This document shows positions 16,971 through 51,740 of a stretch of 64,000 nt of DNA, piece by piece. A program made the translations under genes and the position numbers. The stretch lies in contig OZ374560.1 in the NCBI GenBank assembly GCA_977862235.1, positions 248,001-312,000 of the forward strand, written 5' to 3'. Source of the stretch: Dudresnaya verticillata (taxonomy: Eukaryota). The notes under the pieces are model-generated. The model saw only the letters and a program-made list of their open reading frames with translations. It was not told where the DNA came from and did not search any database. Numbering within the stretch: position 1 is the stretch's first letter; each line of letters begins with the position of its first letter.

Positions 16971-17134
16971 TGCAGTGTAAATCTCCGAATGAGGCTCGCA
17001 ACCAACACAACCCACGAGTCCGACATGAAAAGGAATCCGCGGTGACGCGTATGAGCGCGTCGGCGCGTGGTAGGGTAGAGCAAGGGGAAGGCCCCAGTGT
17101 GCGGACTGTAAACACACACCAAAGCCCGTGTGAG
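16971..17134 (-). repeat. Element C 3' LTR, piece 1
   Basis: Homologous to 51741-51904; interrupted by element B at GTGAG. Confidence 0.85.
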
Positions 17135-17866: not shown

Positions 17867-17879
17867 CGGCCCCCTTCTT
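17867..17879 (-). other. Polypurine tract of element B
   Basis: Minus strand AAGAAGGGGGCCG abuts the 3' LTR. Confidence 0.75.
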
Positions 17880-17937
17880 AAAACTAAGCGACCACGCTCA
17901 GTCCACAGTTGACAGCAACGCCGTTTCCAATTACATT

Positions 17938-18612
17938 TGTGGTGTAGTGAAAACGCACGAACTCCGAGACGGAGATCTGGCCTGACTTTCCTTAACGGAC
18001 GAGAGCAACACTACCTCCACGGGGTGGAAGAGCAGTTCGCACCGAGACAGGAGAACAGCGAGCGGCTAACCGAGACGGATATTGGGAAGCAACAGACAAG
18101 GGGGTGGTACAAGTGCCGGGACGGACTCCGTAACGGTGGTGGTGGTAGACCGCAACGGGCTCGGCGCGGGGAAAACCGTAAAGGATTGGGCTAAGGTTGC
18201 TTACCCGTTTACCTTAGGAGCCGCTGCGGTGCCGCCCTGATATACAAGTCAGGGTGGCACCGAGCGGTCCGGTCCGTGGGGGCCAGACCCTAGTGGTATG
18301 GACCCATGGTGGAATCGGCCCTGCTGGTCCCAATCTCCGACACGGACATGCGCAGCATTCTCATTGGCTGGCGCACTACTCTACATACTGTACAGATACT
18401 CACTAAAAATAAAGAATAAACACTACAAATACTCCGGTATGGTTGTTGCGCTTCACTGCTGTACAGCAATGCGTACCGGCGTACAGCAATGCGCACAACA
18501 TCCGACACGGTTACACGTTGCCAGATCATCAGCGTGGCGTATTGCCACATCACCCGTTACGGTTGGCTCGCCGTCGGTGGGCCGCATGCGCGCCACGGCT
18601 CACTTCACCACA
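17938..18612 (-). repeat. Element A 3' LTR
   Basis: Direct repeat of 28647-29321; 14 differences counted by eye. Confidence 0.95.
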
Positions 18613-18627
18613 GACTCCCCTCCTTAA
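18613..18627 (-). other. Polypurine tract of element A
   Basis: Minus strand TTTAAGGAGGGGAGTC abuts the 3' LTR. Confidence 0.8.
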
Positions 18628-21600
18628 ATGGCGCCACGTCCTCGGGCGCCCACCGTAGCGGATCACTATCGCTTCTCCACCCACGAACACACACACACCC
18701 GATACGGAAGTGTTCTCATCAACCCCTTCCCCTTTGTGCGCGCTTCTCCCACCATGTCAGGGGAGAAGACCAAGCGCTCACCGTCGCCCTTTCAACCGAC
18801 ACGGCGTTCCCGCGCTGCTTCCACTACTCGGGCGCAGGGCGCGCGAACCGTTACCGATGCTTCGACGCTAGCGCCTGCTTCTTCCTCGGCGGCAGCGACG
18901 CGACCCGCGACGGGCGGTCGTACGAGTATTTCCGTGACGGAACCTTCACCGGCTCCGTCAGCGAGCCGAGGGTGGTCGGTCTATGATCCGAATCGGTTTG
19001 CTGCAAGCGCAGCCACAAGGACCGTGCTACCAGGGAGTGCAGCGACCCACCGTGACGGAGAGGCGCCAACCAAGGAGCGCGATGATGCGTTCCGTCCTGG
19101 TGGCGAGGAGCTCAGCTTGGCAGACCTACCGGCCATTCCGTTACGGAAACCATCGACACCGGTATCGACGCCGAGTCGTAGGATGGTTTCCAGTCCACAT
19201 CCTTCCTCAAGTACACCGAGACGGATGCGTGGGCCCCCGCAAATCAACCCACCTGCACCGGGGCCTTGGTGGCCGGTGGTGCATACCCGTGACGGAGAGG
19301 GCCCTGCCCCGAGTGGTTATTGGCCGGAGCACCACTTTGATCATCGCGCGGGGCGACCGGCTAGAACCGATGCGGAACGGGCAAATATTAAGCCCCCGAT
19401 GACGGTGGACCTCTTCATTGAGAAATATCCAACCGTCTTGGAAGCAAGAAGGTACAAGGCCGTCATGGCGCAACCCTTCAAGGCGAATCAACGCATTGGC
19501 GTTGTTCCGAATCGGAGAGAATTTGTGTGGCAAAGCCGATGGGTGCATGGCTATTGTCAATCAAGGACCTCTATCGTTTCGGATTTGTTGTGGTATCGCT
19601 GCCATGGGGAGGTAGGATATACCGCAAAGGTGAGTCACCTGTTGGCCACAGGTTTCCGTCTCCGGGGTGCGCCGGTCGGAGTGCAATTCAATTGCTTCGA
19701 CCGCCCCTATGACCAATCGGTATATTGGTTCCGCTATGCCGATGGGTGGAAGGACGATGCCGCGACGGAACACCGTTTGCGAACTCGTTCCCGTGACGGA
19801 ATACAAGTTGGTTCGCCAATCCTGCATACGTGGAACACTAAGGAGTTCTTCCATCTTCCGTATCGGGTGCGTCGTGAATTGTACCTTACGGCTCCGTCAT
19901 GGTGGGCGCGTTATGAGGTGACCCGTTGGTTGTCTGTCCCCACGCCGTCCGTCGTAGCGTACTTCTCGGCGGACTTACTCACCGAACGGGAGTGGAATCA
20001 CAAGCATCCGAACGGAGAACGTCCCCCGAATTAAGATCAGCTCGATGTACTGTGGCGCATCTTCCGATCGGAATGGGCCATGCTGGTGCTCTTCTCGTGG
20101 CTCCAGGTGGCCTATTACGGAGTACAGTATAACACCAAGTTAGCTGACTGGCGAGGCTTCCCACGGGATGAGGATGACCTGCCCGGGGGAGATTGTGGCC
20201 GTATTCTTCAACTTCCCGTAACGGTGATCGCCCTAATTCGCCAAGTCGGCGTAGCCGATTTGGTGACGGGGTCGGCGTACCCTCTCCATCGGGTTGAGCG
20301 TCTTTTATCCGTACACGGATAGCAGGATTGGGCACGCACTCCGGGCTTCTTGGGGTATAATTGGGACGACGACCGTGTCCTATCGGTGCCCCCGCTTAGG
20401 CCCGGAGTGCGTGAGCCATATTTCCTTCATCGAGAAGATCCGCGTCCGGAATGGTCGGCCTTAGAGGTGCAGGCCCATCGGGACTATGCCCCTCGCCAAG
20501 CACCAAGGGATGCGTACCGTGACAGTTTGGATGCGGCTGAAGATTGGGGGAGCTGTCAGGAGGCAGCGTGGTGTCCGCGTACAATCGACCCACGCGATTC
20601 CGTTACGGTGAGGCAGCAAGAAGCTGACCCCTTCTTGGAAGAACAGGAGGAGGTCACGCCCGTCGCCTCAATGGCAGCGGGTAGCGAGAAGACACCCGCT
20701 CCAATCCTTCCGGTGGTCGCGACACCCACGTCGCGCGATGTGGATCGTGAGACTACTACTCCCGTATCGGATAAGGCCCCAACGCCCATAGGCGTGGTTG
20801 CGCCGATTATGGCGGTACCCAAGCCTGTGCCACCATCCGAGAAGGGGAGCTCAAAGGAGCAGACCGTTGCGGAAGTGGCGCCGGATACTGTGCCGGCGGC
20901 ACTGTCTCCTGCGACGCAAATGCCTGCTGCCGCTGAACCGCTCCCGCCAAGTGCTCCGCTGTTAGCGCCCACTCCCACACCAGCTGGGAATGCGGCGTCG
21001 ATCACCGTATCGGAAGTGGCTGCAACGCGCCCAAGTGTTGGGGCAACTGGAGAGAAGCCCTCGGTTCTCGCGCCAAGTCCTGAACCGTTACGGAAAAGCG
21101 ATATCGCCTCGCCAGAAGAGGACACGGGTCCACCGCTGCGGAAGGACGTACCTTCACCCGAGTCGGGACCATCCGTATTGGTGGTTTCCTCAACGGAACA
21201 TTCACTCGAAGCCGGGGTTAGGGATAAGCCGTCGATCTCCCCTAAGGTAGAATTTCAAGAAGATGAGGATCCCCCCGTTACGGTTCCGGCTCATTTAGCC
21301 GCTACGGAAAGTGGGTTACAGGTGCTACCGGGCATTTGCCGTACGCAGCGCTTCCGATTGCCAGGATCCGTTCAGGAAGTGTTACCCTTAACGGAGGGGC
21401 TGATGGAACAGGTAATTCATCTCCGCGCGGTGGTCCGTCGTCAGCATCGGCGCATGGACAGTGCGGTTCGCGTCTTGGGAGACACTACGCAGCGCGTATT
21501 CCAATCGGATCCGAGTGGGGAACCCGGCTTACGAACGGGTCAGGGGAGCAACGAGGAAGATACAGTTTCCCCTGCTCCCAAACGGCGTCGACGTAACTCT

Positions 21601-21654
21601 TGGAGTTACAGTTCGACGATCTCCTTAACGGTTTCCATTATGCCTCGATCTTAG
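18628..21654 (+). pseudogene. Antisense ORF of element A (~1000 codons, unknown protein, two in-frame stops)
   Basis: ORFs 18628-20034, 20080-20322 and 20350-21654 are all in one frame, broken only by TAA 20032-20034 and TAG 20320-20322. The termini are S/T/A/P-rich and flank an aromatic-rich core. Confidence 0.8.
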
Positions 21655-21703
21655 CTTGCGATAAACGTTGTATGTTCTCACACCCCAGCACTCCAACTGT
21701 CCG

Positions 21704-24700
21704 TTACGGTGAGTGACGTGTTGGATTAGCACGTCGCCGTGGCTTACCCTTAGCGGATGTCTTTTTCCTTTGCTTCCAATATCGGTAGATGAAATTCTGC
21801 GGTAACTCCTCCGCGGGCTCAAAAGTGTCCTGATCCGGAGGGTAACCATACCAGCGGGCTTTGTATGTCATCCCAGTAGGTTCGTCGCGGTGACCGAAAA
21901 TCTTGTCAATCACATATTCCGTATCGGCTTGCAGTGGTTCCATCGCGGAGGGAGTAGTACCTTCAGAAGGAGGTACTACTGTAGTACCTTCTGGATGTGG
22001 CACTACTTCCCCGTAGACGGTTGATGGCGTGACAGGCGGCACTGTTAAGGGTGCCGGCTGAACCGCAACTCCGATCGGAACCTTCGTGATGCGATCGATA
22101 CTTACGGGGATCAATACCCCTTCCTTGCGGATTGTAACGACATGTTCCGTTGCCGATTCCACTTCATAATGCCCCGTGGCTTTCGGAAGGAGTTTCTTCA
22201 TTTCCTGAGCCACCTCGCCCACATCGTCCGGTTTGCCTTCCAATCGGTCCCGCTCACGGCGTTCGGCCGGCCGCAAGTTATGGGGCGGCCGGTCGACATA
22301 GACTTGATCTCCACTACGGATTATGGGCCTAAAGCGCACCTTACGGTCAAACAGTGCCTTGGCTTTTTGCTGAGCCACTGTCTGCTTCGTGCGCGCTGTC
22401 TGGAGCGCGTACCGTAAACGGCGCATGGTGCTCCGCTTCTGTAGCACCGGGGTCATACGTCCTTCCGTAATGGTTTCTTGATGCTCGACAGGAGCCCCTC
22501 GTACAACAATGTCCGATGGGTGGCGTGTCAGCACCAAATCAAATGACGTTGTTTCCGTAATACGGTGTACCTGCATGTTGTACGCCTATGTCAACGGTTG
22601 CAGGTACAAATCCCAATCGGAGTGATGATCCTCATTGTAATGGCGCAATCGTTGGGCGATTGTCTTATTAAATCGCTCAGCTTGCCCATTTGTCTGCGGA
22701 TGGTAGGCAGCGGTAAGTAGATGCCTGACTCCGAGTAAGGAACACACTGCGTCAAAGAACTTAGCAGTAATCTGCGGTCCGTTATCGGTTAGGACAAATT
22801 GGGGTGCGCCATACGCATACACCCAAAAGTCCAGAAAGGCGTTAGCCACAACAACGGCTGTTGTTGTCCGTAACGGAATACAGCGCGTCTGCTTAGAGAA
22901 CCGATCGGTTATTACCAGAACGTATACATAACCCCGTTTTGTCTTCGGAAGTGGCCTGAGAATGTCGATAGCGACAAACTCCAAGGTCCACTAGCGGGGA
23001 AAAGTTTCATAAACCTTTGATTCCGAAAGCGGGTTCCCTTCGTCTTCACGCAGGAGCGACATGTCCGAACGGATTCAAATACATCGTTGGCCATATGAGG
23101 CCAATAATAATCCTGTCGGAGTGTATAATACATCTTAATTCCGCCTGGGTGACCCGACATCAGGGTGTAGTGGGATAAATACAACACCCGTCCACGGAGT
23201 TCGCTTGGCACCACCTTCTGCAGAGCACCATCCAATTGGGACTTGCGTACCAAGAATCCGTTACGGTCATGGTCAAACTGTGATCCAGGGGAGCCTACCG
23301 TATCGGCTTTGAGACGACAGAAAGGGTCTCTGGCTTGCGCTTCGAGGAACTCCTCCCTGGTAATTGTCTCATCCTTAACGTCGGATTCTTGGATTACAGT
23401 AAACCGTGACGGTATTGCGTCGGGCTTGTCGGGGGAGGCGGATGAACTCCCACTGGCGGGCTCCACGGCGCATATTACGTTATTTTCCGTAGCGGTTTCT
23501 CGTGATGTGGCCCAATCGGTTAAATAGACTCCATGCTCATATAATCCGTCGACGGTATTTTCGGCGATAAAGCAGGGTATCTCTTCATCCAAAGGTCTAT
23601 CGTCACCGCCATCCGTTCGGAGCCGCGACATCCCATCGGCGAGTTGATGCTTAATTCCAGGACGGTATTGCACCTCAAATTCAAATTCCGATAGGCGGAG
23701 CCTCCACCTGGCAAGGCGGCCAGATGAGTCTGCGAGGTTCAGGATCCACCGCAGGGCATCGTGATCCGTTCGGAGAATAAACTTGTCACCGTAAAGGTAG
23801 GGTCGGAGTGTTAACATGCTCCAGACCACGGCTAAGCATTCCTTTCCGGTTGTCGTATAATTTTTCTCCGCATCTGTGAGGCTTCGGCTCCAATATCCAA
23901 TAGGGAAGTGATCGCCATTCGGTTGTTCCTGCAGAAGGACACAGCCGACTTGGTGGTCACATGCGTCAGTGTCCAACGTATATTTATATCCGTGACGGGG
24001 TAGAGCCAATATAGGTGGAGAGATAAGGCGTCTCTTCAGTTCCTCGAAGGCTTTATATTCCGTATCGGATAATATTCCAAACTCAACGGGTGAGCCCTTG
24101 CCGGTTTTCTTATTTGGCGGTGCTGAAATCCGAGCGAAGTTGGGTACAAAGCGACGATACACGTTGCACATTCCCAAGAAGGATCGCAATTCCGTTTGGT
24201 TAGTCGGCGGCTTCGCGACCTTATCGGATTGGATATTCCGATTATCCACTTCTAATTTTCCGGGACGGATAACATGCCCCAGGTATTGTACAGACGCGTT
24301 GAAGAAGTCACACTTTGACAATTTCAACGTTACCCCAGCGGATCGTAAAAGCGTAAGGACTTCCTTCAAGTGGTGCAAATGTTCCGTAACGGTTTTTGAG
24401 TAGACAATTACATCGTCTAGGTAGACGAGGGCAAATTGCCATTTAACCGTAGAAAGGATTATATCCACTGCCCGTTGGAAGGTTGCCGGTGCATTTTTCA
24501 ATCCGAATGGCATTCTCCGAAAACGGTATAAGCTGAAATGGATAGTGAAGGTACTTTTGTCCCTTTCCTCTTCCGGAATCTCGACTTGCCAATATCCGCT
24601 ATTGAAATCCAGGGTGGTAAATACAGTAGCTTCCCCAAGGGAATCTATGCACTCATCCATCCTGGGTAACGGATATGAGTCCCTAACCGTTACGGAATTG

Positions 24701-25976
24701 AGCCTTCTATAGTCAACACAGAACCGCATGGTGCCGTCCTTTTTTGGAACGAAAACCACGGGGCTTGCCCACTCCGATGAGGCTGGTTCAATTACCTTAG
24801 CGGAAAGCATGCGATCGATCTTTGTCTTTTCGAGATCTCGCTGCTTATGTCCGGCACGGTATGGGGCTTGATATACTGGCTTCGCTCCGGGAGTTAACTC
24901 GATCCGGTGCTTGGCAGCTGTAATGTTGCCTAGATCGCCACTCCACATCGACTAATGTTCCTCGAGTAGGGTTAAAATCCGTTTGCGGAGCGATGCTTTT
25001 TCTGTTCCGATCTGGACTTGATCCTTCCAGTCGGTAGTATTTGTATTTTCCGTTACGGGTTTGCTTACTTCCTTATCGTGAGGGGAGATGCTGCTGGCCT
25101 TTTCGGAGGTAGGGTTAGAATTAAATGATTGAATAATTCCTCGCCCCTCCTTAAATGGAGGTATACCGTCAACGGTAAAAATAGCAGAAGGGGCAGCAGT
25201 AGCGAGGCCCACGACAGTATATTTGGGCAACCGTACCGGCTTGTTAGAAAAATTAGAGACCCAGATCCGAAACGGTTTGTTAGGTACAACATCCATAATA
25301 CCATTAGCCATCAACGTAAGGTGCTTAAAAGCCGGCTTAGGATGATTTTGTAGAAAGCATAACCCACCCGTGGGGTATTAACCGTTACGGTGGTTTGAGT
25401 CATAGGGGGAATAAGGGTAGATTTTGCGAAACGAATTTTCTGAGAAACCGTAGCGGTAGAAAGAGGTGAGGGCTGTAGGGTTGCAGTGGTTCCCGTCTTC
25501 GGAATTTTGGCTTGACCAACAAGGGATACCGGTGGGTAATGATGAAAAACAACTTTCCGTAACGGAGGGAGGATTGCCTTGACGTAGCGGTCGATGAAGG
25601 TAGTTCCCAAAATACAGGGAGCCGCCAAGTTCGCGACCACTAGAAAATGGACGCGAGCACGGAGCTCTCCGATACGGACGAAAAGTTGGATCTGACCAAG
25701 AGGGCGTATAGCGCGATTAGACGCATCCCGTAATATAGGACTGGCTGCTGGGTGTATGAGTGGGAGTCATTGGCGCGGAAGGCGCCTGGAACTAATGAGA
25801 TTGGGCCCAGCGCCAGAGTCTAAGACCGAGATTAAAGGAAGCATCACTCTATCTGTCCGTCCCACGGTAATTTGCATCTTGTAATTTTGATGTTGCATAA
25901 AGCAGATAGTATCATTGGTCTGATAAGCCAATGGGAGTTCCGTAACGGTATCTCGCCGATCCCCTGGCGGGTCCAC
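21704..25976 (-). pseudogene. pol: Element A pol: aspartic protease, RT, RNase H, integrase, chromodomain (disrupted)
   Basis: LDSGAG (protease); RFCVDYRRLN, MPFGLKNAPATFQ, YLDD (RT); TDACD...RTDH (RNase H); HPG...CRSC, AIDIL, TDNG, HPQTNGQAERFN (integrase); EYVIDKIFGHR...YKARWYGYPPDQDTFEP (chromodomain). Confidence 0.95.
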
Positions 25977-26034
25977 ACTCGCGAGAGGTGGAACGCCGTG
26001 AGGCGGGGATGGCGGCGCCCTTACGCATCCCCCC

Positions 26035-28498
26035 TTGAGTTTTCCGAATTCAAGGTTGCACCAGTCGGATCCGCCTCCATGGGCTCGCGCAATTCTGCGA
26101 GTTCCACTCCGTCATGGTCCTCCACCGATAGTATCAGGGCATTCCGTTGCGGAGGGGGCGTATGCGGCCTGCCCCGATTCCCTTGCGGATTCGAACTGGT
26201 TCCTACTACGAACCTGCGACCTACAGGGTAGTGCTTCTGGAAGTTGCGCTCGCGCTATTCCATAAGCCTAACCCGATCGGAGTCATGTATCCAGGGGCAA
26301 ACAACGTGCTCTGGCGAAAGGCATATGCGACAGTTACCACTTCCGTAAAGGCGTCGGACCCGAGGATCCGACTCATCCCGTAACGGAGGTGCTGGTTGCT
26401 GCTGTCCACGCCCATCGTGGGCATTATTTCCGTAACGGTGACTCGGCTGCTGTTGGAGGCCAGGAGCCGGGCGAGATCCACCATAGGGGGACCTTGCGCC
26501 CGTGGCATCCTGGGCGGAGTAGGGTGGACGCTTTGCGGGGGCGAGGAGTACGGGGTAGAAAAGGTAACCCCCGTGCTCGTTCCCGTAGCGGCACCGTGGC
26601 CTCCCTCGACAGCTAAGACTTGAGCATCCGTAACGGAAGGATCTGCTTGCGGATCATAGTGTACATCCGAGACGGAATCCAGCGATAACACCTTAGACGG
26701 ACGTGCTTTAGTGCACCCATCAAAAACGTAAGCCGGAACGGTTTGGCGTCGAGATGCCCGATGGGATTGACCCAGGCCAGTCGCGTAGCGAGTGATGGCC
26801 TGATAATCCAGCTGGGAATGCGTCGCCAGATAAGTTCTCATCTGTTGACGAGTGCCCGGTAGGAGTCCTTCAACGAACAGTGACTTCAATGCCCGATCGT
26901 AAAATACTGTACCGCAACGGAGAGCCTTGGCCCAGAGCTGGTTCGAGAACTGCTCTTCCGTCATGGCGGATGTTTGCCTGAAGTTGCTGACATCCGTATA
27001 GGCTTCAGCAATCACTTCATCCGTAGCGTAGGTTCTCAATAAAACGTTCACCACCTCGGAATATGTGCGGAGCATCTCGGCCTGCTCCACGTCAACCGCC
27101 ATGGTACCTCCAGCAAGCCTAGCCTGTAGAAGGGCTTCGGCCTGTCCTTTAAGGAAAAACTGGAAGCACCAGACGGCAACCCCTTCGGCGATGCCGTTGA
27201 TGTTACAACCGTCACGGAACTTGGCGAGAAATCCCAAGACGGTAATAGGGTCCGTCCCATCGAATGTATGGGACGACATCTGGACGTGGAGTTTCTTCCG
27301 TATACGGCTCATGTTTTGTGAGAACTTAGAGCCGTATGTCTTACTCCTCTTATCCAATCGGTAGGTGCGGTAGTCCAGCGCCTTGACAAACTTGTCATGT
27401 AGCGGCCGGAATACCTTCACCTTTCCTGATTTGGCACCGTGTTTTCTGGCCCGGTGCCTATTCTCTCTATCCGTTACGGAAGAACTCTCTGAGTCTGAAT
27501 CCGTAGAGGTAGAGGAGTCATGCCTTTTTTCGCGTTTCCGCGATCTTCTGTTTCTCCTCTTACGGCGGCGGTGTTGGCTACCCTCTGAGCTGCTCTCATT
27601 GGATTCCATACCGGATTGGTGGCGTCGTCGCTGGGTGTGGTCGCGCATGTGCGACCGACGGGGAGGGTCAGAGCGGGAGTGTCGGGCATCTCGTTTATGC
27701 CGACCTCGACCGGTCCTCCGACTCGGATGGGGTTAGCTGGACGCATCGCTGAGATGGTCGCTGCCTCCACCTGATCGAAAGGAACGGTATAGCGCTCTTG
27801 CTGATAGCGCCCTGGCGTAGGCACATCTATGTGTCCAGGAGAATACCGTAACCGTGGCTGAGTGTGTGTTGGTCCCATAGGGGCGTGTTGATGTTAAGAA
27901 TCCGTTACGGGATCCGGTGGCAGTGGCCCAGAGGGTACTGTGCCCGGCGGCAATCCCATAACGGGGGTTGTTGCGGCTGCTGCGTTCTTCCCTCGACCGG
28001 GAATTCATTCCGTAACGGTGGTTGCTCAGTGAAAGCTTCCGTAGCTGGAGGCCTTGCCATGCCGGGAGAAATCTGTCTCTCGAGCTCGGCGGCCACCTTT
28101 TCCTGTAGGATCAAAGCTTGCACTATCCGAGGAAGGTGCTGCTCCAGATAGGAATTAACCAAAGACGGAACAGTTTCCGAGAGGGATATCTCCACCTCTT
28201 TTACCATTCCAGGTTGTACTTCCAATCGGAGATGCTCTAACACCCTATGAAGGACCTCCGACAGGACCCAGTGGATCCGATGGGATTCCGGCTTGGGTTG
28301 CGGAGCTGCCTTCTTGGAGGCGTCTGATCCGACACGGGAACGGGTAGCTTTACCAGCAGCAGCCTTTAGGATGTCTTCTGGGTTCTGCACTCCGGACCGG
28401 ATTTCACCTCCTTCACTGCGCAAACTGCGCGCAGCGGGGGTAGTGTCACCCGCTTTAGGTTCCGTAACGGGAGGGTCTGCGTTTTCTTCGTTCTGCAT
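26035..28498 (-). pseudogene. gag: Element A gag (frameshifted)
   Basis: ORFs 27905-28498, 27474-27878 and 26221-27648; LDYRTYRL and FDGTDPITVLGFL motifs are shared with gag of B and C; FRQTSAMTEEQF resembles a retrotransposon gag motif. Confidence 0.8.
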
Positions 28499-28622
28499 GA
28501 TACCTTAACGGAACACAACGGTTGTTCTTGCTTGTCTATCCAATATTCCGTAACGGGTTGTCGGTACAGCCGAATTCCTACCATAGCGGATTTCGACGGC
28601 TGTTTCTTCCAACCGTGACGGT

Positions 28623-28641
28623 GTTCTAGGTCGGGAGACCA
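28623..28641 (-). other. Primer-binding site of A (TGGTCTCCCGACCTAGAAC)
   Basis: Starts with TGG 5 nt inside the 5' LTR; the same motif occurs in B, C and D. Confidence 0.85.
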
Positions 28642-28646
28642 AAAGA

Positions 28647-29321
28647 TGTGGTGTAGTGAAAACCCACGAACTCCGAGACGGACAGCTGGCCTGACTTTCC
28701 TTAACGGACGAGAGCAAAACTATCTCCACGGGGTGGTAGAGCAGTTCGCACCGAGACGGGATAACAGCGCGCGGCTAACCGAGACAGATATTGGGAAGCA
28801 ACAGACAAGGGGGTGGTACAAGTGCCGGAACGGACTCCGTAACGGTGGTGGTGGTAGACCGCAACGGGCTCGGCGCGGGGAAAACCGTAAAGGATTGGGC
28901 TAAGGTTGCTTACCCGTTTACCTTAGGAGCCGCTGCGGTGCCGCCCTGATATACAAGTCAGGGTGGCACCGAGCGGTCCGGTCCGTGGGGGCCAGACCCT
29001 AGTGGTATGGACCCATGGTGGAATCGGCCCTGCTGGTCCCAATCTCCGACACGGACATGCGCAGCATTCTCATTGGCTGGCGCACTACTCTACATACTGT
29101 ACAGATACTCACTAAAAATAAAGAATAAACACTACAAATACTCCGGTATGGTTGTTGCGCTTCACTGCTGTACAGCAATGCGTACCGGCGTACAGCAATG
29201 CGCACAACATCCGACACGGTTACACGTTGCCAGATCATCAGCGTGGCGTATTGCCACATCACCCATTACGGCTGGCTCGCCGTCGGTGGGCTGCATGCGC
29301 GCCACGGCTCACTTCACCACA
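28647..29321 (-). repeat. Element A 5' LTR
   Basis: TG...CA, flanked by the PBS and TSD ACATT. Confidence 0.95.
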
Positions 29322-29393
29322 ACATTGACCGTTGAGATTTCAATCTTAGTCCGTTCATTGACCCAGTCAACGCAGTTGGCAATCCGCCTCCCA

Positions 29394-31180
29394 ATGTTTC
29401 GGGTTCCCACCTGTCTCGACCCGCGTCGAAGGCCAAATTAGGACGGCCATAGCCGCCGTCGGCGGCGGCGCAACTTCGCGACTGGTATCGATTGCGAGGG
29501 GAGCCTGACTGGCGAGCGCCTATTAAACCGACTGGCACTCTTGTCCCTTTCCCACTCTCCGGGGGCAAGACCGGACGAGACCAACCTCCCTTGTCTTCCG
29601 GGCCGGATATCAGTGCTCTGTCGACCCCCTTCCAACCGCGCCGGTGGGCGCCGCCTCGTCGCGGTGACTCGTTTTTGCGACCCACGTCGCGTCTGTGCAC
29701 CCTACCGGCTGGCGCCGCCGATTGCGACTGCAGGCCTCCTTGGCTGCTCCAGTGCGGTTGTGGGTGGGTGCCACTTGCGCCGGAGGCTCTTGCGCGAAGA
29801 ATTTGCCAAGTCGCAGGAGACTTTTCAGGTCACGCTCGCTGTCTCTGCGGAGCGGCTTTGGAGCCGACGGTCAGAAGGCCTCCGTGCCTTACGAGAATCA
29901 CTCAGGTCGTGCTCGTCGAGTCTTCGGATCGGCTCTGGAGCCGACGTATCATTTGAATTCACGTCGGGGCAATGGCGCCCCCGCTAGCGTATGGAGCTGC
30001 CGGCTCGAGTGAAAATGTGCTCGGGCACGAGTTTGGATGCGGCAGGTGTGCCGTTTGCTGTTTCTCATAGCTGCGACTGGCTCCTGCGTACCGACCTTGC
30101 ACACCTTAAGCTGCGGGCAGGTGCCAGTCGCGAGGAGATTCGACGTCGCGGAAGTCGTATGGCTCAAAGTCGCGTTTGGAACACCCTTATGCGAGCTCGG
30201 TTGAGTATCCTAACCGGTACGAACCGCTTCTTACCCCGTCTCGATGGCGATGCCAATACCCTTCAGTGGGATCTCGCCTATGTGCGATTCCGGCATGAAA
30301 TGCCTTGGAGCAACACCATAGCTCAGAAGCTAGCTTCGACCGCCAACGCACTGGAAGAGATCCGCCAGAGCGGCGAGTGGTATCTAAGTATGGTTATGCA
30401 CGAGCGGCCGCTTATTCGTGCGGGCAGGGATAATTTCCCGTATACTTTGGCTCGCATCGTGAGATGGGATGAGTCGTCAAACTGAATTATGCCCTTGACA
30501 ACCCGCAGACGGCGAAGCCGTTAGAATATACTATCTTCGAGCATCGTGAACGTCATAAGACGAGTTGCTTGGTTCCTTGCCATTGCCAAGAGGTATCGGC
30601 TATCAAGCCGGCATTCTACAATGGGAAGTATCCCCATGTGCTGGACGAGCACAAGAACTATGAAGTGTCCTATTCCATGCCAGTTGGTATTCCCACCATT
30701 ATTGCCTATTTGGGTCTATAAATTATGGCGAAGGCCATGGACGATAGTGTGCTGTGGAGCATCTTCAGACATGAGTGGGTCGTCTTGGTAGCCCAGACCC
30801 TTATCTATGAGGTCCTTCGTGGCCTATTATTCTTCATTGGGCAGCCGCTTCGGGTGGCGATTAGGGCCCTGGGCCCAGCGGGGTTGACCGCTAACGACTC
30901 CGACGCTGAGGACTTGGAAGCCCTGCTTTTTGTGGAGCGGATCAAGTGGAGTCGTATCTCCAAGCGCAATCGTCATCTCCCAGAAAACACGGGGCATATG
31001 ACGCCGGTCTTTGACCGCGGGGATTGGGTCGACTTCGACCCCCTCAAGTGGCATCCTGTTTTGCCCGACTATATCATACAGCCTGCGCCGTCCGAGGAGA
31101 GTCCTCTCATTCTTGACGAAGGCATTCGTATGACCGGCGTCACCACTGGCTGGGTTAGTGCGAAATGGCATGAGCCGTGA
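29394..31180 (+). pseudogene. Antisense ORF of element B (disrupted, 3'-truncated; start approximate)
   Basis: Fragments 29541-29987, 29991-30485 and 30725-31180; contains NYEVSYSMPVGIPTIIAYLGL*IMAKAMDDSVLWSIFRHEWVVLV, homologous to the antisense ORFs of A and C. Confidence 0.7.
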
Positions 31181-32200
31181 CCTTGACGGTTCCTAATTTC
31201 CCGTCCCACATGTCGGCGAAAGGACGCAACATTTTGCGAACGCGGCGTCTGTCAGACGGGGATAGGTGTTCCAATTCCAAGTCGTCGACTGTGAGCTCCT
31301 TTGTGGCGGTTTTGACGCCTACTTTGGCGTTGGTCGCGCCAAGAGCAGGCGCTAGCCCTGCCCCTCTACATCGAACGATGTATCGGCAGGAGGACTCGAG
31401 TCCTGTGGCTTCGGGTCCGTATTGTCGGGGACATCGGCGATGGAAAGAGTATAAACCGGCGTGGCCGTCGGAGCGGGAACGGCGCGACCAATGACTTCGT
31501 TCTTGGTTAACCGTTGCACTCGGGGAGAGAAGTTAGCGATCTTAACACGGAAGAGAACGTTCTCTTGTATCTTGACGATTCCATTCGTGACGACCACTTT
31601 CTGACGGTCGTAGAGGCGTTGGAAGGAATGCAAGAAGTGGGTTCCTTTGGCGGTGCAGGAAACCGCGACCCAGGTTTCAGAACCGGGCTGTAAGTTAGTT
31701 GTTTGAGCAACCCGTACGAGGCGCGACGTAGTTAGTGGAGGGACCTCCATGGGTTCGCCAGAGCGTGTGGCTCTCGGGATTCCGCATCTTCGTCGTATAA
31801 TGGGATGTACCCAACCGTCTCGTAAGACTACGTGTTGCTTACGCACTCGAAGTTGTTCGACGCGGCTATCGATATAGGTGCATCCTAGTATCATATCGAC
31901 GGCTAGCGCCGAAACCACGACGAAGGGTTGACGTACCGTGTAGATTCCAATCCTGACGACGAGGGAGATCATTCCTGATGTTTGTAAGCGGTGGCTTGAT
32001 GCCGAGGTGAGGTTGACGATCGACAGGGTCGAGGAAACCTTCTTCCGGTCGTCCAAAGAGAGCACGTCAGCTCTGATGAGATTGGGGCCTGCGCCCGTGT
32101 CCAGAACTGAAAGTACTTGAGTCATATGTCCAACAGAGGTCCCAACGGACGCGAAAACGTTATAGTTGTATCTCTATAGCGCGCACACTGGGTCCTCAAT
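31160..32200 (-). pseudogene. pol: Element B protease and first residues of the RT region, then deleted
   Basis: LDTGAGPNLI (31352-32125); LTVDDLELEHL...MWDGKLGTVKVTAHAI ends abruptly at ~31163. Confidence 0.85.
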
Positions 32201-32393
32201 GTGCTCCTCATACTTGCACCCGGGGGGTAAGCCCACGGGGCGTGCTAAAACCTTCTTTGGAAGAGGAAGCGGGAGTTCCCGCGAGACCGATCGTTAGGGT
32301 GAGGGAGGACATAGGAAATGGCATTCCTCGGAGCGATCTGGGGTTCCGATACGACTGGAGTCGCCCAGTGGACCGAAACCGGTTCCCCCATTG

Positions 32394-35108
32394 CTAGTTT
32401 TTCGGCCTACTAGCAGGCGACTGCGGCAGCGGTGGAGGCGGCGGAAGGCTTCTGGAGCCTGGTCTTGGCGACCGTGGCGCCGTCGGCGGATGTTTCGGAG
32501 TGTCCACTGGATGATTCAATCCCCCTTGAAATTGGACATGGCCATTTCGGCTTGGGGCAGACCCCAAATTTTGAGGAGGCCCCCTCGATGGCCCTGCTCC
32601 ACGTCCTGATGACGTATAATCGGGCTGTTCCCTACGGGTATTCCCCGGGGCGAAATCAGGTAGTCGCCCTATGGTGGCTAGCCATGCCTTCTTTTCGCGA
32701 GACAGTTGATAAAACTGCTGGCTTTTTAGCACCTCAAATGACGGTTCATTCGTACGAGCCAGATATGGGCAATTCGGCTTTTTATGGTCCACATTCCCAG
32801 ACACTCGAAGCATATATCATTTGGCCTGTCTTCGACAGCCACCCAACCGGGACGTTGTGTCCTTGTGGGCTCAGCCCACGCAGGCATCCTGTGGTTGTAG
32901 TTCTGAAGGACTGTGTCCACAGCGCCATGGTATGGGTCGTCACTCAACGCGGCAGACCACGAGTCTAATTGGGTTACGCTGGACAGAGGCGCTTCGTGAT
33001 CAATGGCTGCAACCACTGCATCCTCACTGTCGGCCTCAGAACTGCTGCTCTTCGAGGAATCGGTGTCTGAGGACTGTTGAGTCCTATTTTGCCGAATGAG
33101 GAGCGCTCTTCCAGACTTGTGTGTCTTGACCTGTGCCAGTATTTTGCGAGGTAACGAGGAGCTCGCCTTCTTGAGACGAGCACCACCCGCAAGGGCTCGG
33201 TGCGAATCTCCCTGAGCTGTCGCTAACTCGATATAGTCGGCTAGTCGCGCGGAGCGCGGGTCCAGAGAGGATGTATTTAGAAGCGGTTTCACCGCGGGTA
33301 GAAGCCCGCGTATAAAACACGTTGTCAAGTCCTGTTCCGAGTATACCCCCGCGACCTTTCGCGCCTTATTCTGTAGACATCTTGAAAAAGAGACTTCGTC
33401 TTCCTCTGACCCTTGGGTCATCGTATCCATTTCATAAGAAATCTGTTGAATGTAAACGTCTTTGGCGTAAGTCCGGAAGAGGTAATTGATGGCCTCGGGC
33501 CACTCATTGAATCTACCATTGTCGTCGCCGGCCGCGTCGAAATTTGCTTCGAACATGTCCTTCGCGTCCTTTTCAAGGAATTCAGGTATGACCAGGATGG
33601 CCGCTCCTTCGCTCACTTGGGCTTGCTCCAACTGTCTCTTCAAGGTGGCTAGAAAGCCTATGATTGACACTGGGTCCCTCCCATCGAATCGCCGAGTCCT
33701 CATTACGGATTTAATCCGCTTGATCTTTTTCGAGGTGGCTTACGTTACCTCGGGCCCACGATATGAATCGACATTCAGTAATCGGTATCTCCAATACGAA
33801 AGTACTTGTATGAACGCCGGGTTTCGTGGAGTTAACTCCTTAATTCCCGCTCGACCCTTCCTCGCCAGGAGCTCCAGGAGGGTCTGGAGAGACCCCGTGA
33901 CGACGGCTCGTCCTCATCCGATTGCATCGGCGCCGGGTATGAGGCGTTTCGACGCTGCCCCTCACCATTGTGGCTTGAAAGCCGGTCTTGACGGGAGTCC
34001 CGTGTATTACGACATACAGTGGGACCGTGCGATGATCGGCAATCACACCGGGGGTGCGTGTACTTCCTACGACTAAATTCGTCTTGTCCAGACTCCCCGT
34101 CCGATTCACGTCTTGGAGACGTCCTGCGAAGGTCCCTCGTGCCACGGGGAACGGGGGAACGTCGCCGCTCAACCTCAGGGATTAAATCCCTCTCGCAGCT
34201 GCGTCGTCGCGTCTTGTCTTCTAGCAACGTTACCTTCCGCTTTTCAGCTTCAAGCTCTTGTCTCAGGAGCTCAATAGCTCTGTCTTGTTCGACACACCTG
34301 GTGTCGTCTACGTTCCGTCGAACGTCTTCAATAGCCAATACGGCTTTTTCTCGAGTTAGGTCGGTGACCTTGGTTAGCGTATGGAGGTTTCCATGGACGG
34401 CGTCCAATTGGTCACCTAATGAGTCCATTTGTGCTGGCAGGGTTTCGACCCTCTCTTCTTCTAATCCTCTAGGAGGACCTTGCCGGAATCGAGATTCCAT
34501 CTCTTGTTGGCACTTAGCCAAAAGACGGTCGTCACGGCGCGCCGACGCCTCGTCGATACAACTCTTGACCTTTGCAAAGGTGTCGTCGGCTTGACTTTCC
34601 AAGAGCGCCACGACACTTGTCGTCAAGGAACGCTCGATTCCCAACTCGACCATTCGTCCGATTTATCTTGCAGTGAAACATCGGACGTCTGACGAATTGT
34701 ACTTCGTTTTCGTCGGCATCCCCACGTCCGGGGGCGCCAAGAATTCTTCTTCTAGGGCCGGTCCGCCCTCGGCTTGCATACTGGCAAAGGCCATTGACGG
34801 CGGCAACATTCCAGGGTTCGAACCCTCATTCTCCCCAATATCCCGGGGACTCCTCTTGCGGTTCGAACCGTGTTCTCTCCTTCTGGGACCTGGTCCCCAC
34901 TTGGGCCAGGTACTCCTCCTCCGGCCGGGGCGACCGTCACTTGAAGCGGGCGTCCCGGACCACCCGTTAAGGGGTTTACTACGAGAGCGGTGGTGGTCGC
35001 ACGGGTGCGAACTCCCGTAGTAGTTCTCGCGGAGGCAATACTGCCTGTACGGCTTACTCCCCGGCTCGATAGTCCGGGTCGGGTAGTATCACCAGTAGAA
35101 GTGGGCAT
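32394..35108 (-). pseudogene. gag: Element B gag (disrupted)
   Basis: Coiled-coil ORF 33832-34653; LSYWRYRL; FDGRDPVSIIGFL (32726-33703); frameshifted zinc knuckle CFEC...H...CP. Confidence 0.8.
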
Positions 35109-35497
35109 TATTGCCGCTATTATTCTCGTCTCTGCCGATGAGGTAGCGGGGACTTCTTCCCAAGCTTCTCGACGGTCAGAACCGTAGGATTAAACGTGTT
35201 TTCTCAGTTTGCACGGAAAACCTGTTGAAGCGGGCTCAACCCGGGCGTCAATCCGCCGTTGAGGGAGACTTCTGGGGACGGTTTTAAAACCGTTAAATGT
35301 AGTTTGCATGCTCACAAGATTTGACGTTACTCCGGAGCTTGATGTAAAGCGTAGAAACCGTCGACAAATAGACGACTAGGGTTTTACCCTTCGATGTTCC
35401 AAGTCTTGGGACTTCAACGGACGGTATATCCTGTCTTGAATCTTTTGATTTGGCCCGTCGAGGGTAATGTAGAAAAAGGGTCCGACCCTGAGAACTT

Positions 35498-35516
35498 GTT
35501 CTAGGTCGGGAGACCA
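35498..35516 (-). other. Primer-binding site of B
   Basis: TGGTCTCCCGACCTAGAAC 1 nt from the 5' LTR. Confidence 0.85.
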
Positions 35517-35517
35517 C

Positions 35518-36247
35518 TGTAGTAGAATGACTTCTAAGTCAACGAGGACAACAACACAACAAGACAGCTGTCTTAGAAGATACTGCACTGCGTAGATGGT
35601 AGCTCAGTAAAGGGGTTTGGTAGAGACTTGATAGGGCTTAAAGCCCTAAGAAGAGGGGGAAAGGGAAGGCGAACCCAGCCGTGTAGAGCAGTTCGTCGTA
35701 GACGACGGGGCTTGTAGACGCCCAAGGGGGTTTGTAGCAGTAGCACCGTAAGTATCCAAAAAGGGGAAACCCAAGGCACAGGCCGCTGCCGGTTTAGTGC
35801 CGGGCCCCTACTACTCAGGGGCCCCATAAATACGGCGAGAGCCGAAAAGGTGCTACTCGCTCAGTTAGAGTTCTAATGCTAATATTTAGCTAATACTGTA
35901 CAATACAGTTACTGTATGATACGTCCTTAGATAGGAATGATTGGTCAGGCCACGAGGCGAACGCGGCGTCACTGTCAGGCGCCGCGGGGCAAACATCCGC
36001 CAGCAATGCATAGCGCACTGATGCGGTCATAGTTAATCCCCAAATGGCATAGTGCCATATTACCTGGAGCAGTGCGCCTTACAGCTTAAAGCTGTACACG
36101 TGTTGCCTTACAGCGCAGGAGCGCTTCAGCAATTAAAGCAATCTGTAAGCCAGCGATATCACCCGGGCGGTTGTGCGCCTGCCATTCCTTACAGAGGACT
36201 CGTGTCCACGTGGCTCCTTACAGGACGTGAACGCCCATTGTACCACA
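35518..36247 (-). repeat. Element B 5' LTR
   Basis: TGTAGTAG...TACCACA; repeat of 17135-17866. Confidence 0.9.
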
Positions 36248-36737
36248 GTGAGCGCGCAGTGAGCCGGAAGACGAGGGCTCTGGCACAACAGAAGCGTGTG
36301 AACACGAAGGTAGAAAGGTGTCAGCACCACAGGCGTACGTAGCCCAGCTCCGCGATGGCTTCACTCGCCAAGCGCACGGCGTTAGGGGTACCTTAAGTGG
36401 GGAGCCGAAGCTTCGTTGGGTTTACTGTAGGAGGGTGGTCCTAGCCCCTTAAGTCCCACCGCCGGCGGCGGCGCCGCGGCGGTGGCGACTAGGGCTACTG
36501 TACACTGGTAAATAGACTAACACTAGAGTACGATAAACTAGCACTACAGTAGCACAGTGTCGTTGCTGAACACCGACACCAGCACGCTGTAAGACTTGCC
36601 ATGAAGCGTGCGTGTGATGAAGCGTGCGTGTGCGCGTGTGAACGTGTCACGCGTGTTGGGCGTGTCTTGCGAGCACTTGCATGGCGGTGGCTGTAAGGCG
36701 GCGAGTGCGGCCCAGTAAAGGCGACGGCGGGGGAACG
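36248..36737 (-). repeat. Element C 3' LTR, piece 2
   Basis: Homologous to ~51900-52370. Confidence 0.85.
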
Positions 36738-37956
36738 TGTGGTGAAGTGAGTCGTGGCGCGCGTGCAGCACGCCGAAGGCGCGCCAACCGTAACGGGTGA
36801 TGTGGCAATACGCCACGCTGATGATCTGGCAACTTGTAACCGTGTCGGGTTTGTGCGCATTACTGTGCACTGGTATGCATCGCTGTACTGTAAGTGGAGC
36901 GCACCAACCGTAGCGGAGTATTTGTAGTATTTATTATTTATTTTTAGTGAGTATCTGTACAGTGTGTTGAGTAGTGCGCCAGTCAATGAGAATGCCGCGC
37001 ATGTCCGTGTCGGAGATTGGGACCAGCAGGGCTGATTCCACCATACGACCAGACCACTAGGGTCTGGCCCCCACGGACTGGACCGCTCGGGGCCACCCTG
37101 ACTTTTATAATAGTTGTAAGGAAGTACCTTTTAGATCTCTTGTGAACTCAAAGAGTGCACTCAATGAAAAAGCCACAGAGCGGGTACCTGGTAGCGGTGG
37201 TAGAGCAGGAGGAACCCAGAGGGAAGACGAGGGGACGTAACCGGATTGGAAGCACGATACTGAAGGTAGTTCACTGGGCGGGCGGTTAACCGGGCACGGG
37301 TGACAGGTGTGCTGCGGTGCCGATAGCTTGGAGACGTAGTTGGGGCCGGAATGTGCTTGCCTTTACTGTACAGTGACCGCTACGGGAGATGGCCCTATAT
37401 GGTACTCCGACTATCAGGCAGCACCCCTCATACTGGGCTATATACACGCCCCCTATCCTAAGCTATAATTTCTAAAATAAATAGACAGATACTAAGCTAC
37501 TGACCTACAGGGTGACACTTGGACCAATCATAGACTACCCGTCTTGTCCCTGTTGGTGCCCTATAGGTAACGCCATTTCAGGGCATACACGAGGGCAGAG
37601 GGCCCACTTCTGTAAGCCCTTCACTGTATTACAATAGGGCGGCACCGCAGCGGATCCTAGGGTAAACGGGCAAGCAACGCTTGAGTCTCAATCCCACTGT
37701 AGCTCTTTCCTTTACGGTTTTCCCCGCAACGAGCCCGTTGCGGTCTACCACCACCACAGTTACGGAGTCCGTCCCGGCACTTGTACCACCCCCTTGTCTG
37801 TTGCTTCCCAATATCCGTTTCGGTTAGCCGCTCGCTGTTCTCCCGTCTCGGTGCGAACTGCTCTACCACCCCGTGGAGGTAGTGTCTCTCTCGTCCCGTG
37901 TAGGAAAGTCAGGCCAGCTGTGCGTTATGGAGTTCGTGGGTTTTCACTACACCACA
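36738..37956 (+). mobile_element. Solo LTR A' (family A, opposite orientation), interrupted by solo LTR D
   Basis: 36738-37114 and 37634-37956 are the reverse complement of LTR A; TG...CA ends; flanks gaacg/attga do not match. Confidence 0.88.
37115..37633 (-). mobile_element. Solo LTR D (519 bp)
   Basis: TGTAAG...ATTACA; TSD atagt/atagg; reverse-complement homolog at 55063-55573. Confidence 0.85.
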
Positions 37957-38018
37957 ATTGAGCGCGCGAAAAAGGGGCTATCATCCCGCTCTGCGGGGAG
38001 CCCGGGCGTTGCACCAGA
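37957..38018 (-). repeat. Element C 3' LTR, piece 3, followed by PPT (38019-38030)
   Basis: Matches ~52460-52522 (gagcccgggcgttgcacca); minus strand AGCGAGGGGGTG abuts it. Confidence 0.8.
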
Positions 38019-38131
38019 CACCCCCTCGCTAAGACGCGACCGCGACACGCCAAGTTCTGGAGCTCACTCCTTTTCTCTGACACGCGGCTTTCAACACTGG
38101 GAATATTCTCCATCGTCCTAGCGGTCAACCG

Positions 38132-39037
38132 TATGGTGTAAATCGTCTAGCGAAGAGTAGCACTTCCGGGTAGTTCGGACCCGGGGGTAGCGCGCTAGTA
38201 GCGAGGGTGCGGTAGAGCATAGGTAACACGCCGAGGGCGGACTGCAAACGCCCTTGTCGGTAGAAGTGGAACACTGCCACAGAAAGGAGAGAGAAAGAGA
38301 AAGAAAGGGAGAAAGGATAGAGAAAGGGAGAGAGGCGCGTCAGGGACGTAGACGGACGCGGAGGTGCGGGCGGAGCTGCGCAGTTGCCTTCATTGGTAAC
38401 GGGAAGTACGCACTAGCGAAGGGGATTCAGGTCCGAGGCTGGCTTGCCGGGATTTACTCATATTCCCAGACGGGTTTCCTAATATACTATCGCTACGACG
38501 CGGGCTGCGGCGGCACGGCGTGGCGCGCGGGAACTCGGGACGCGTGTCGCGCCCCCGTGCGTCTGAAAAGTCGTCGTCGCCATACAGCCGCGCACGTGGT
38601 AAGGAATAGCTTACAGACGTGCGTGCGCGTAACGAATAGCTTACAGGCGGGTCCGCACGTCGGTAGAGGTGATCCGGATTCGGATCCCGATCCCTGCCAG
38701 CATTGCTGGCGCGTGGGTGTGCCTTACAGGCGTACGCCTTACATTGTAGCGGATCCCGATCTGATCCCGATGTCCGATCCAGATCCCATCCGGATCTGGG
38801 CCATCATTACAGGTACACGCCTTACACCTCCCGGATCCCGATGGGCGATCCGGATGCGTGCCGCGCGGGCGCGAAGTGCGTGAGCCGCCATGCCCGCGGC
38901 GGTTGTGGCGCCCATACGCCGTCGGGCCGACCGTCCGTGACGTGTTCGCGCGCGCCAGCGGCGGTTACGATTGCCCGTCGGTAGACGTCTTTTGGCACGC
39001 TCCGAGCGAAAAAGGGGCTCACCCCCCTTGCACCACA
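38132..39037. mobile_element. Solo LTR H (906 bp) in C's 3' region
   Basis: Perfect TSD AACCG at 38127-38131 and 39038-39042; ends tatggtgtaa...ttgcaccaca; inverted homolog at 52880-53703. Confidence 0.8.
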
Positions 39038-39186
39038 AACCGCCCGTGCGCCCATAGCCGTACCGCGCGAGCGGTGGCTGAGTTGCAACGTTGCACGTAC
39101 GTGCGTTGCGTTTAGCGTACGCGGTTTGCCGCTCTTCGTGGTGTGAACACCTTTGTCTCGACCCGCTGGTCGCACCTGACCACACG

Positions 39187-42138
39187 ATGCCGCAGTACAA
39201 CGCCGATGGCAGCTTATTGCTTGGGGTATTGTCATCAACGCCCCGTCGGAGCAGGTATCGTTTCCTGCTCCAAATGATTACTTGTAGAAAACCCCTTTGG
39301 AGCATCCAGGGCTGTTCGCGAGGGCGCCCTGGATGCATCCGCAATACGTGAAAAACCACGAAGTGCTGGAGTTGTACTCCCATAATGGCTGGTTGCCTGG
39401 TGATATCCCCTTAGATGGCGTCGACCGCAACAGCTGGAAGCTGTACGGCGCCATGCCCGCGTCTTGCGTGCGCCGTCGCTGTCATGAGACGGCGTCGCAG
39501 GCGCGGGTGTCCTTCGTGAAGCTCACGCATCAGCGTCTCTACCGGCCGCCCTGCAGCGTGCCGGTAGAGTACGAAGTGGAGTTGGACCTCATGTTCTATA
39601 GACAAGATGGGGATATCCCCTACGTATATCGTATGCTCGACCGACCGCTGCCCCCGGCGTGTCGAGGGGACGTCACCGATATTGGAGACGACTCCTTGTT
39701 TGGGGGGCAGCGGTTTATGGCGGAATTCAGCTACGTTCGCAAGCGGGATTACCCATTCTTCGACCGGTGCATCCGGTGGGAACGTGAGGCGCGGCAGCGC
39801 CACGGTGTGCTTGTTCCCTACCAAAACGTAGAGATCGAGCGCGTCCGGCGCGACGTCCTGCCACGCCTGTACGTGCGCTTCCCGCCTGGCTTGGCCCAGT
39901 GGGAAGACCCGACGGCATGCTTGTGGAGCTTCCTCCAGTCCTGTCCTACCGAGGCAAGGACTTAATGGACGATTTGGTTTCACCCTTTTGGCGCGTGTTC
40001 TACATGGAGTGGGTGGCGGCGTTCGCCACCTCGTGGCTTTGGGAGTGCTACGAAGATTTTCGTATATGGCACGTCCCCGCCCCCGTGTTAATACGTTTTA
40101 ACCGGCTCGCCCTGCGCGAGGTTCTTGGCAGTCGCGTGAGCGCGGAGGAGTTTTACTCCCTGCTGAACATCTACGGCACGATCGACTGGGACGACCACAG
40201 CGATGTGCCGTCGACTAACCGGAGAGCCGGAAGGGCGTAGGGGACTTCCCAAAGGCGTGAACGCCGTAACCTTGCACCTGGTCTCCGTCACAATTTGTTC
40301 GGCGACTGGGTGTGGTTTAACGTGTGGACGCGTGCGTTCGTGGACGACGACTAGGCGGCGTCCTTGTGCAAACAACGACGGGAAATCCCGAGGGGCCACC
40401 TGCATTGTTCGGCGTTTTCACCAGACATGGTGCCGCCGTTCGAGGCAGCCCAGCATGCCGACTCGGCCGTGGCGGACGAGTCGGATGAGGAAATGGGATC
40501 ACCCAAGGGCAACGACTCCATCGAGCCTGCCGACAGCGCGGCGACCAACGTGCCCACCGCGTCGGGTGGGTCGGCTCCTAAATCGGGACTTCCCGTGTCA
40601 CCGCCTACGGCAGCCGCGCCCGGCGGACCGGACCTCGCGGTCGTATGCCGCTTCCTCGAGGAAGCTGGCATCGTGGCGGCAGACGACGTGTTAACACGTG
40701 AAGGGTTGCTCGCGCGCGTTCGCGGTGCAGCCCCAGGCGGTTCGTACGCTGTGGAAGGGGTGAGCCCCAAAAGTACCGTAGCGGCTCAGGCGGGGCCGGC
40801 CGATGACGGACAATGTGGCATAGCTGCAAGAACAGCTGTGCCACGCACGCGCAGCTGCAAGACCAGCTGCACCACCTGTGCACCGCTGTGCGCACGCTGT
40901 CCGCCGGTGGCGCCGAAGCCCCGCTGAACTGTACGTAAGTGCGCTGTGGCGCCCTCGCGTGCACGTGTACGTGTGTGACACTGAAACTCCCATGTACTTT
41001 CTATGTCTATATTTGTGTAGTTTACAGCACTGTCTAGTGTAAGCGGCGGTCGAACGGCCTGCTATCCCGCGCGCCGTGCGCACGCACTCCGGCGTAGAGC
41101 TGTTGAGTGCGTGACACGCGCGCTCGTACTCCGGCGTCGAGCTGTTGAGTACGTGTGGACCGTTTCGCCCACGCGCGCCCCCGGGTTGCCGTTACCTATA
41201 CGCGTCGACGCGTGTCGGGGTGCCCCGGCACACCTCCCGGGTTGGTTCTGCCGCAGTCCCTGTAGTCCATTTAGTAGCCGTCCCTCTGGGCTTTAGTAAA
41301 CAAAGGCAAGCCAGCCTACGCCAGGCTTGCCCCTTTCTGCCTTAGGTTTCTTTCCCAGTCTTTCGCCCTACGGCTTCCATCTTTCCCTAGCCTCCTGGGC
41401 TTTACTTTCCTTTTCCCACCGTCAGCTTTGTGCCGCCCCACGACGGGGACGCAGGGATCCGGCCGCTGCCGCCCTCGTACGGTCCGCCCCGTGCGCGCTG
41501 AGGCTTCAACGCCGTTGATCCGCGACCGGCGACGGCGCGCGCGGCCGACACTACCGCTCTACCACTTACCGCTACCACCCTTCGATGGATCTGGGTGCGA
41601 CGACGAGACCAGCCGCGCTAGACGTCAGTTCGACCTGGCTTCTATGCCTCAGAGAAGGCGCCGGGAGCAGTCAGGCATTGCCGAGTGTGCCGACCCCGGC
41701 GTCAGCGTCTGCAACAGGAATACCTGCGTGGATGGCGCAGGGGTTATCCCCAATCAGGCCTAGTGGCGTCGTCACCCTCGCAACCATCACGGCGGCGCAG
41801 AACGCGCGCCGATAACGGATGGGGGTGGCAGCGACGTCTGTCGCCACTGATGGCGCCAAGGAAGGGGAGATCCCCAAAAGCAGGGGTGGGCCCGCTACAG
41901 TGGCCACCAAATCCGCGGCGGCCCCTTGCTTTGCAGCCAGTCTCGTTCCGATCAACGCAATGAGCGCGGCGGGGCTGGTGGTGTGCAGACTGGGACGGAT
42001 GACGTCGTTATGGGCGACGCGGGCGATCTCGACGTGGGCGCGGCCACGGAGTCACCGAACCTCAACGATTACGTCGAGGTCACGGATGGCGCTGTGGAGG
42101 CGGAGGACCGCGACCTGGTAGATTACGGCGATCTCTAG
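39187..42138 (+). pseudogene. Antisense ORF of element C (frameshifted, split by solo LTR E; start approximate)
   Basis: Fragments 39297-39965, 39899-40240, 40364-40813 and 41652-42138; contains QWED/DGMLVELPPVLSYRGKDLMDDLVSPFWRVFYMEWVAAFATSWL; acidic C-terminus. Confidence 0.72.
40814..41651 (+). mobile_element. Solo LTR E (838 bp)
   Basis: TGTGGCATAG...CTATGCCTCA; TSD gacaa/gagaa; direct homolog at 60338-61185. Confidence 0.85.
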
Positions 42139-51734: not shown

Positions 51735-51740
51735 GAAATG

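Follow-up and report, generated by a model that had tools for sequence, protein, structure and literature searches.

What is encoded by the large open reading frames (ORFs) that run opposite to gag-pol in three nested long terminal repeat (LTR) retrotransposons of Dudresnaya verticillata? The three elements lie in a stretch of 64,000 nucleotides (contig OZ374560.1, positions 248,001 to 312,000; the window hereafter), in a Ty3/Gypsy cluster whose elements all have gag-pol on the minus strand, element A being just inside the 3' LTR of element B, and B inside the 3' LTR of element C. The antisense ORF lies between pol and the 3' LTR in all three elements (with a deletion on the pol side in B). 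These ORFs form a gene family with conserved residues, and distinct palindromes are present in A and C and, weakly, in B. We tentatively favour, at slightly less than an even chance, the explanation that a clade of Ty3/Gypsy elements, likely red algal, carries an antisense third gene whose product likely works in the nucleus, binding DNA in a family-specific way and regulating its own element. The ORFs and their parts, in window coordinates, are:

18628-21654, plus strand: antisense ORF of A, 1008 codons, with internal stops at 20032 and 20320.
About 19378-20400, plus strand: conserved core of the A ORF (hidden Markov model (HMM) match at 19570-20352).
29394-31180, plus strand: remnant of the antisense ORF of B, with the core at 30042-31078, a frameshift near 30480 and internal stops.
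39187-42138, plus strand (start approximate): remnant of the antisense ORF of C, with the core at 39291-40399, a frameshift near 39910 and internal stops.
40631-40729, plus strand: small helical tail motif of the C ORF.
40814-41652, plus strand: solo LTR of D, a fourth family, which sits in the antisense ORF of C and splits it.

The original prediction had placed three large ORFs opposite gag-pol at these positions, and they were indeed found there. The A ORF has only 2 internal stops in 1008 codons, whereas 2000 shuffles of its DNA gave 33.6 on average and never fewer than 17; its ends are of low complexity, and a basic motif resembling a nuclear localisation signal (NLS) lies close to its C-terminus. 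The ORFs were said to start near the 3' LTR. This is correct for A and B, with distances of 16 bp and, before the A insertion, about 140 bp, but does not apply to the C ORF, which starts about 1.17 kb away; because of this distance, an antisense promoter in the 3' LTR fits C poorly. They were also said to run toward the end of pol. This is the case in A, whose stop is 49 bases from the pol stop, but the C ORF ends about 1.08 kb short of it, and the B ORF ends at a deletion junction near 31174 (the deletion took reverse transcriptase (RT), RNase H and integrase).

The predicted alignment of the three cores was confirmed in every pair (shuffle p of 3e-4 for A-B, 7e-6 for A-C and 1e-6 for B-C), with breaks read as X; the analyst selected the regions and the frameshift positions. 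A word search with the A protein alone found no relatives. A three-sequence profile of the C-terminal half of the cores, searched against 1.84 billion proteins, matched 340 clusters (below 50% identity) at E≤0.001, 110 of them at E≤1e-10; at least 290 of the 365 core columns were in one open frame in 69 of the best 150 of these 340 clusters, which were the ones used. An HMM of the core was built from 75 outside proteins (365 columns, median pairwise identity 25%), and its only matches in the window were the three ORFs, at 102, 195 and 293 bits. The N-terminal half of the domain, which was outside the search query, also scored (18.7 bits in A, 36.5 in B and 134.5 in C, with reversed sequences at 1.4 or less).

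In a FastTree tree of 143 sequences with a midpoint root (10 with short coverage were left out), A, B and C each fell in a separate clade, with 15, 38 and 87 members and supports of 0.77, 0.98 and 0.85, respectively, and the A-like and C-like clades matched at 99.9% probability over 220 columns. The window cores share 18-22% identity among themselves and 33-39% with their nearest relatives among the matches listed. A D-x4-R-x3-E-x2-Y motif and further R, E, Y and W positions are near-invariant across the three clades. An organism was named for 2 of the 30 proteins looked up, one from Agarophyton chilense and the other from a Gracilaria changii transcriptome assembly; the others came from ENA, Logan or JGI contigs. 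On this basis, the window probably has a red algal host. Judged from the sequences of the three window families and the 340 clusters, the gene is conserved among families and is not a one-off capture, in agreement with the old accessory gene under selection that had been proposed.

Two explanations can be set aside here. An env-like membrane protein would match the location, as env sits between pol and the 3' LTR, but it is refuted by the antisense orientation and by the lack of a transmembrane segment pattern (a hydropathy of 1.9 over 19 residues was reached by 3 of 153 sequences). A chance open frame is excluded by the stop-codon and homology statistics. Together, we give these two a vanishingly small probability.

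A globular core with disordered ends and no recognised domain had also been predicted. The structure model of the core is confident (pLDDT 92.4, pTM 0.90) and consists of a large single globular unit, so that the domain, of about 365 residues, has a predicted fold without a known structural match. No PDB match to the core was found, among searched chains from which the PMD, VANC and TRP28 folds were possibly absent. Pfam gave no already described domain: at the sequence level, there was no match to TRP28 (PF04195) or PMD in the window ORFs, in 150 relatives (E≤0.01-0.02) or in 97 members (E≤1). An MBD match in 1 of 150 relatives (E 0.004) is about what chance would give, and an HeH match was found in 1 of 23 tail motifs (E 0.096); neither had PDB support.

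These searches bear on two alternatives. One is that the core is a new-fold enzyme with DNA, RNA or chromatin marks as its substrate, which would counter host defence without reading any palindrome. The near-invariant charged and aromatic residues of the three clades and the large single globular unit would suit an enzyme, and enzyme domains, methylases among them, are known from retroelements (PMC6338049, in the portion available); however, no enzyme family or fold resembled the core in the profile and PDB searches, and the conserved pairs could be explained as buried salt bridges. We consider it improbable. The other alternative, more doubtful still, is that, instead of having a new fold, the domain belongs very distantly to the plant group of PMD/MAIN, VANC or TRP28, in which case its mode of action would be close to the one we favour. 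According to the available portions of the respective papers, TRP28 occupies the same antisense position in Retand (PMC11963269), plant Gypsy elements encode PMD (PMC5418596), and VANC and MAIN are structurally alike (PMC13547354). Against this group stand the Pfam results above and the description of TRP28 as restricted to flowering plants (PMC11963269, same portion).

Next, we analysed short words in the elements. A word scan of A gave 24 perfect CCGTWACGG sites (1 expected), and a later scan covered all gapped palindromes in A, B, C and 15.8 kb of host DNA. CCG-N3-CGG was found 73 times in A (17938-28646; 7.8 expected, corrected p 7e-42) and GGGG-N4-CCCC 19 times, perfect, in C (0.5 expected, corrected p 2e-20), while the signal of TGG-N7-CCA in B was much weaker (13 vs. 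2.2 expected, corrected p 4e-4). No word was enriched in the 15.8 kb of host DNA, and the word of each family was at background level in the other two elements. Compared to shuffles of coding DNA that keep protein and codon usage, there were 54 sites vs. 8.3 in A, 10 vs. 1.2 in C and 10 vs. 3.7 in B (none of 400 shuffles reached any of these counts), in tests that overlap the DNA where the words were found. In A, sites occur at 2-13 per kb in the LTRs, leader, gag, protease, RT, integrase and antisense ORF, and an A-family solo LTR (36730-37960) holds 10 more.

A single spacer length dominates (in A, 73 sites at N3 vs. 12 at N2 and 16 at N4; in C, 19 at N4 vs. 1 and 3 at the neighbouring lengths). 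The palindromes occupy all three codon phases, without stem extension and without strand bias (20:13, p 0.3). Taken together, these properties fit double-stranded DNA sites better than RNA hairpins, and the pattern fits what would be expected for the sites of a dimeric double-stranded-DNA binder.

The gene could be real and yet unconnected to the palindromes. It would then encode a cofactor of replication or integration, with a job in particle assembly, RNA handling or nuclear import of the pre-integration complex, and the palindromes would be read by host transcription factors, Gag or integrase. Such jobs are done by retroviral accessory proteins, and a role of this kind was proposed for plant antisense ORFs (PMC7264820). 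The neutral charge of the core, its conservation while the words differ among families, and the coiled-coil appearance of some tails by eye also suit a cofactor. By contrast, each family has a distinct word, at background in the others, and no gene of the elements has diverged more than the ORF (18-22% identity vs. 23-29% in gag and 43% in RT between A and C); with family-specific words, a fast-evolving reader encoded by the element is simpler than several host factors. We regard the cofactor as unlikely, but as deserving serious weight.

In the regulator that we favour, the antisense gene would be transcribed from an antisense promoter, and the protein would be imported into the nucleus via its basic C-terminal motif; in 10 of 64 long members, K[KR]x[KR] occurs within the 40 C-terminal residues (0.8 expected). 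The protein would bind the palindromes of its own family as a dimer, and the many bound sites along the element would lead to relief from host silencing or to transcription activation, in a VANC-like manner. The family-specific palindromes and the NLS-like tails lend some indirect support to the anti-silencing or targeting role that had been suggested. A more specific version, possible although we lean against it, is that a new-fold DNA-binding protein of red algal Gypsy elements reads a palindromic barcode in the element's own genes and activates or shields only its own family; this would be an anti-silencing system of LTR retrotransposons with an origin separate from that of VANC and with hundreds of natural specificity variants.

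Several observations weigh against a palindrome-binding regulator. The pairing of protein and palindrome is a co-occurrence in three elements, and the B word gives a weak signal and was selected post hoc, in overlapping DNA. Palindrome spacing is uneven (coefficient of variation 0.96, compared to 0.98 at random). Host factors could be the binders, because CCGTAACGG includes what we take to be a MYB-type site and CCG-N3-CGG presumably resembles zinc-cluster sites. The core has no recognisable DNA-binding fold and no conserved Cys/His ligands, except one His at its end, and its median net charge is +0.5; any NLS-like motif was found in just 14 of 78 long tails (5.6 expected). The outside members were detected as proteins, and their residence in Gypsy elements is assumed. 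In one of them (P0105) the core is fused in frame to a short integrase-like piece, probably by a rearrangement or in a chimeric contig. VANC motifs, in the available portion of PMC5735166, are mainly non-coding tandem repeats in one orientation, unlike the palindromes described here.

The same elements combine a large, unannotated, well-folding domain with candidate target words that differ by family, a strong hint of a self-recognition system. Because the words differ, this idea lends itself to direct tests in which proteins are matched with words. If confirmed, the regulator would show how red algal retrotransposons evade silencing and would represent a new DNA-binding protein family with many specificities. 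Even without the link to the palindromes, no solved structure appears to be related to the fold of the domain.

The elements that carry the ORFs are:

17938-29321, minus strand: Gypsy element A, with LTRs at 17938-18612 and 28647-29321 (98% identical), a target duplication of 5 bp, and gag, protease, RT, RNase H, integrase and chromodomain.
17137-36247, minus strand: Gypsy element B, host of A, with LTRs at 17137-17866 and 35520-36247 (93%), gag and protease only.
16964-52525, minus strand: Gypsy element C, host of B, with a 5' LTR at 51734-52525 (88%), decayed gag-pol and a chromodomain remnant.
16964-17134, 36248-36735 and 37961-38021, minus strand: pieces of the 3' LTR of C.
36730-37960, plus strand: solo LTR of the A family, inverted, within the 3' LTR of C and itself interrupted at 37112-37633.

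The copies in the window are dead, and B, in which no RT, RNase H or integrase match was found, is a deletion derivative. The LTRs had been called unrelated, and no blastn similarity was found among them at E≤1e-5, but the families themselves are related, by the gag and RT identities given above and by one common primer-binding site (28610-28646 in A, 35480-35518 in B and 51700-51733 in C). This site is unlike the tRNA-Met type described for plant chromoviruses; our guess is that it resembles the 3' end of tRNA-Tyr. A and C were also said to carry chromodomains. The one at the integrase C-terminus of A scored 33.9 bits, above the Pfam cut-off of 25.1, but that of C scored 18.1 bits, below the cut-off, and is broken by a stop; the region is deleted in B.

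Other features were observed in the window. CTTACA clusters are present in non-coding DNA of B, C and D (17697-17836, 38610-38821, 42661-42750 and 60380-60571), all opposite the gag-pol strand (uncorrected p 2e-5 to 4e-3, post hoc), and are absent from A. The 3' end of family D lies at 58900-61186 (plus strand), with an LTR at 60338-61186 preceded by a purine tract. Its antisense strand has a low-complexity open stretch that gave no match to the core or tail HMM and may be a remnant of another antisense ORF. Region 52530-56000 has inverted repeats and is enriched in ATC-N2-GAT and CTC-N1-GAG; 53073-53442 is similar to the 3' non-coding DNA of C, and 55063-55576 resembles the sequence that interrupts the A-family solo LTR. 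An intact frame of 396 codons at 3912-5102 (minus strand) is likely a host gene; it has a hydrophobic stretch at the N-terminus and weakly matches the metallo-beta-lactamase fold (E 0.62). A DUF7869 domain in a broken frame at 62745-63936 (minus strand; E 5e-41) is possibly another transposon.

The accessory domain is real and apparently undescribed, but the ORF belongs to a known class. The antisense ORF is not mentioned in the portions available of PMC6338049, PMC3605345 and bioRxiv 10.1101/2025.02.11.637652, and no description of it was found in the literature, a scope that leaves Repbase, GyDB, REXdb and supplements outside. Antisense ORFs between pol and the 3' LTR are known as aORF-3R, and their function is an open question (PMC7264820). 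Examples are gene23 of maize Grande, rice RIRE2, Retand/TRP28 of Silene and Boty of Botrytis (PMC7264820; PMC11963269, as far as available), and the antisense protein of Grande is located in the nucleus (PMC7264820). The ORFs described here have in common with that class their position and orientation, the conservation across families and nuclear signs. By contrast, the domain is a different one, without a match to TRP28 or other Pfam families, the host is likely a red alga, and family-specific palindromes occur throughout the element; compared to Retand, which is of a non-chromovirus lineage, at least element A has a chromodomain.

VANC, the anti-silencing protein of Arabidopsis VANDAL, binds short, densely occurring motifs that are specific to the family (PMC5735166, portion available), and both systems combine an accessory protein encoded by the element with such a dense motif, which was found strongly in A and C and weakly in B. 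VANDAL, however, is a DNA transposon whose motifs are non-palindromic, mainly non-coding and in tandem, and binding and demethylation were shown there; here, the motifs are gapped palindromes within coding DNA, their binding is a prediction, and the protein has no relationship to VANC at the sequence level. PMD, the domain of MAIN and MAIL1, has no match to the core at the sequence level and was described from angiosperms, where it is Gypsy-borne (PMC5418596, in part); it is reported to be structurally like VANC (PMC13547354, in part). What it has in common with the antisense gene is a large, Gypsy-carried domain tied to chromatin silencing (PMC5418596).

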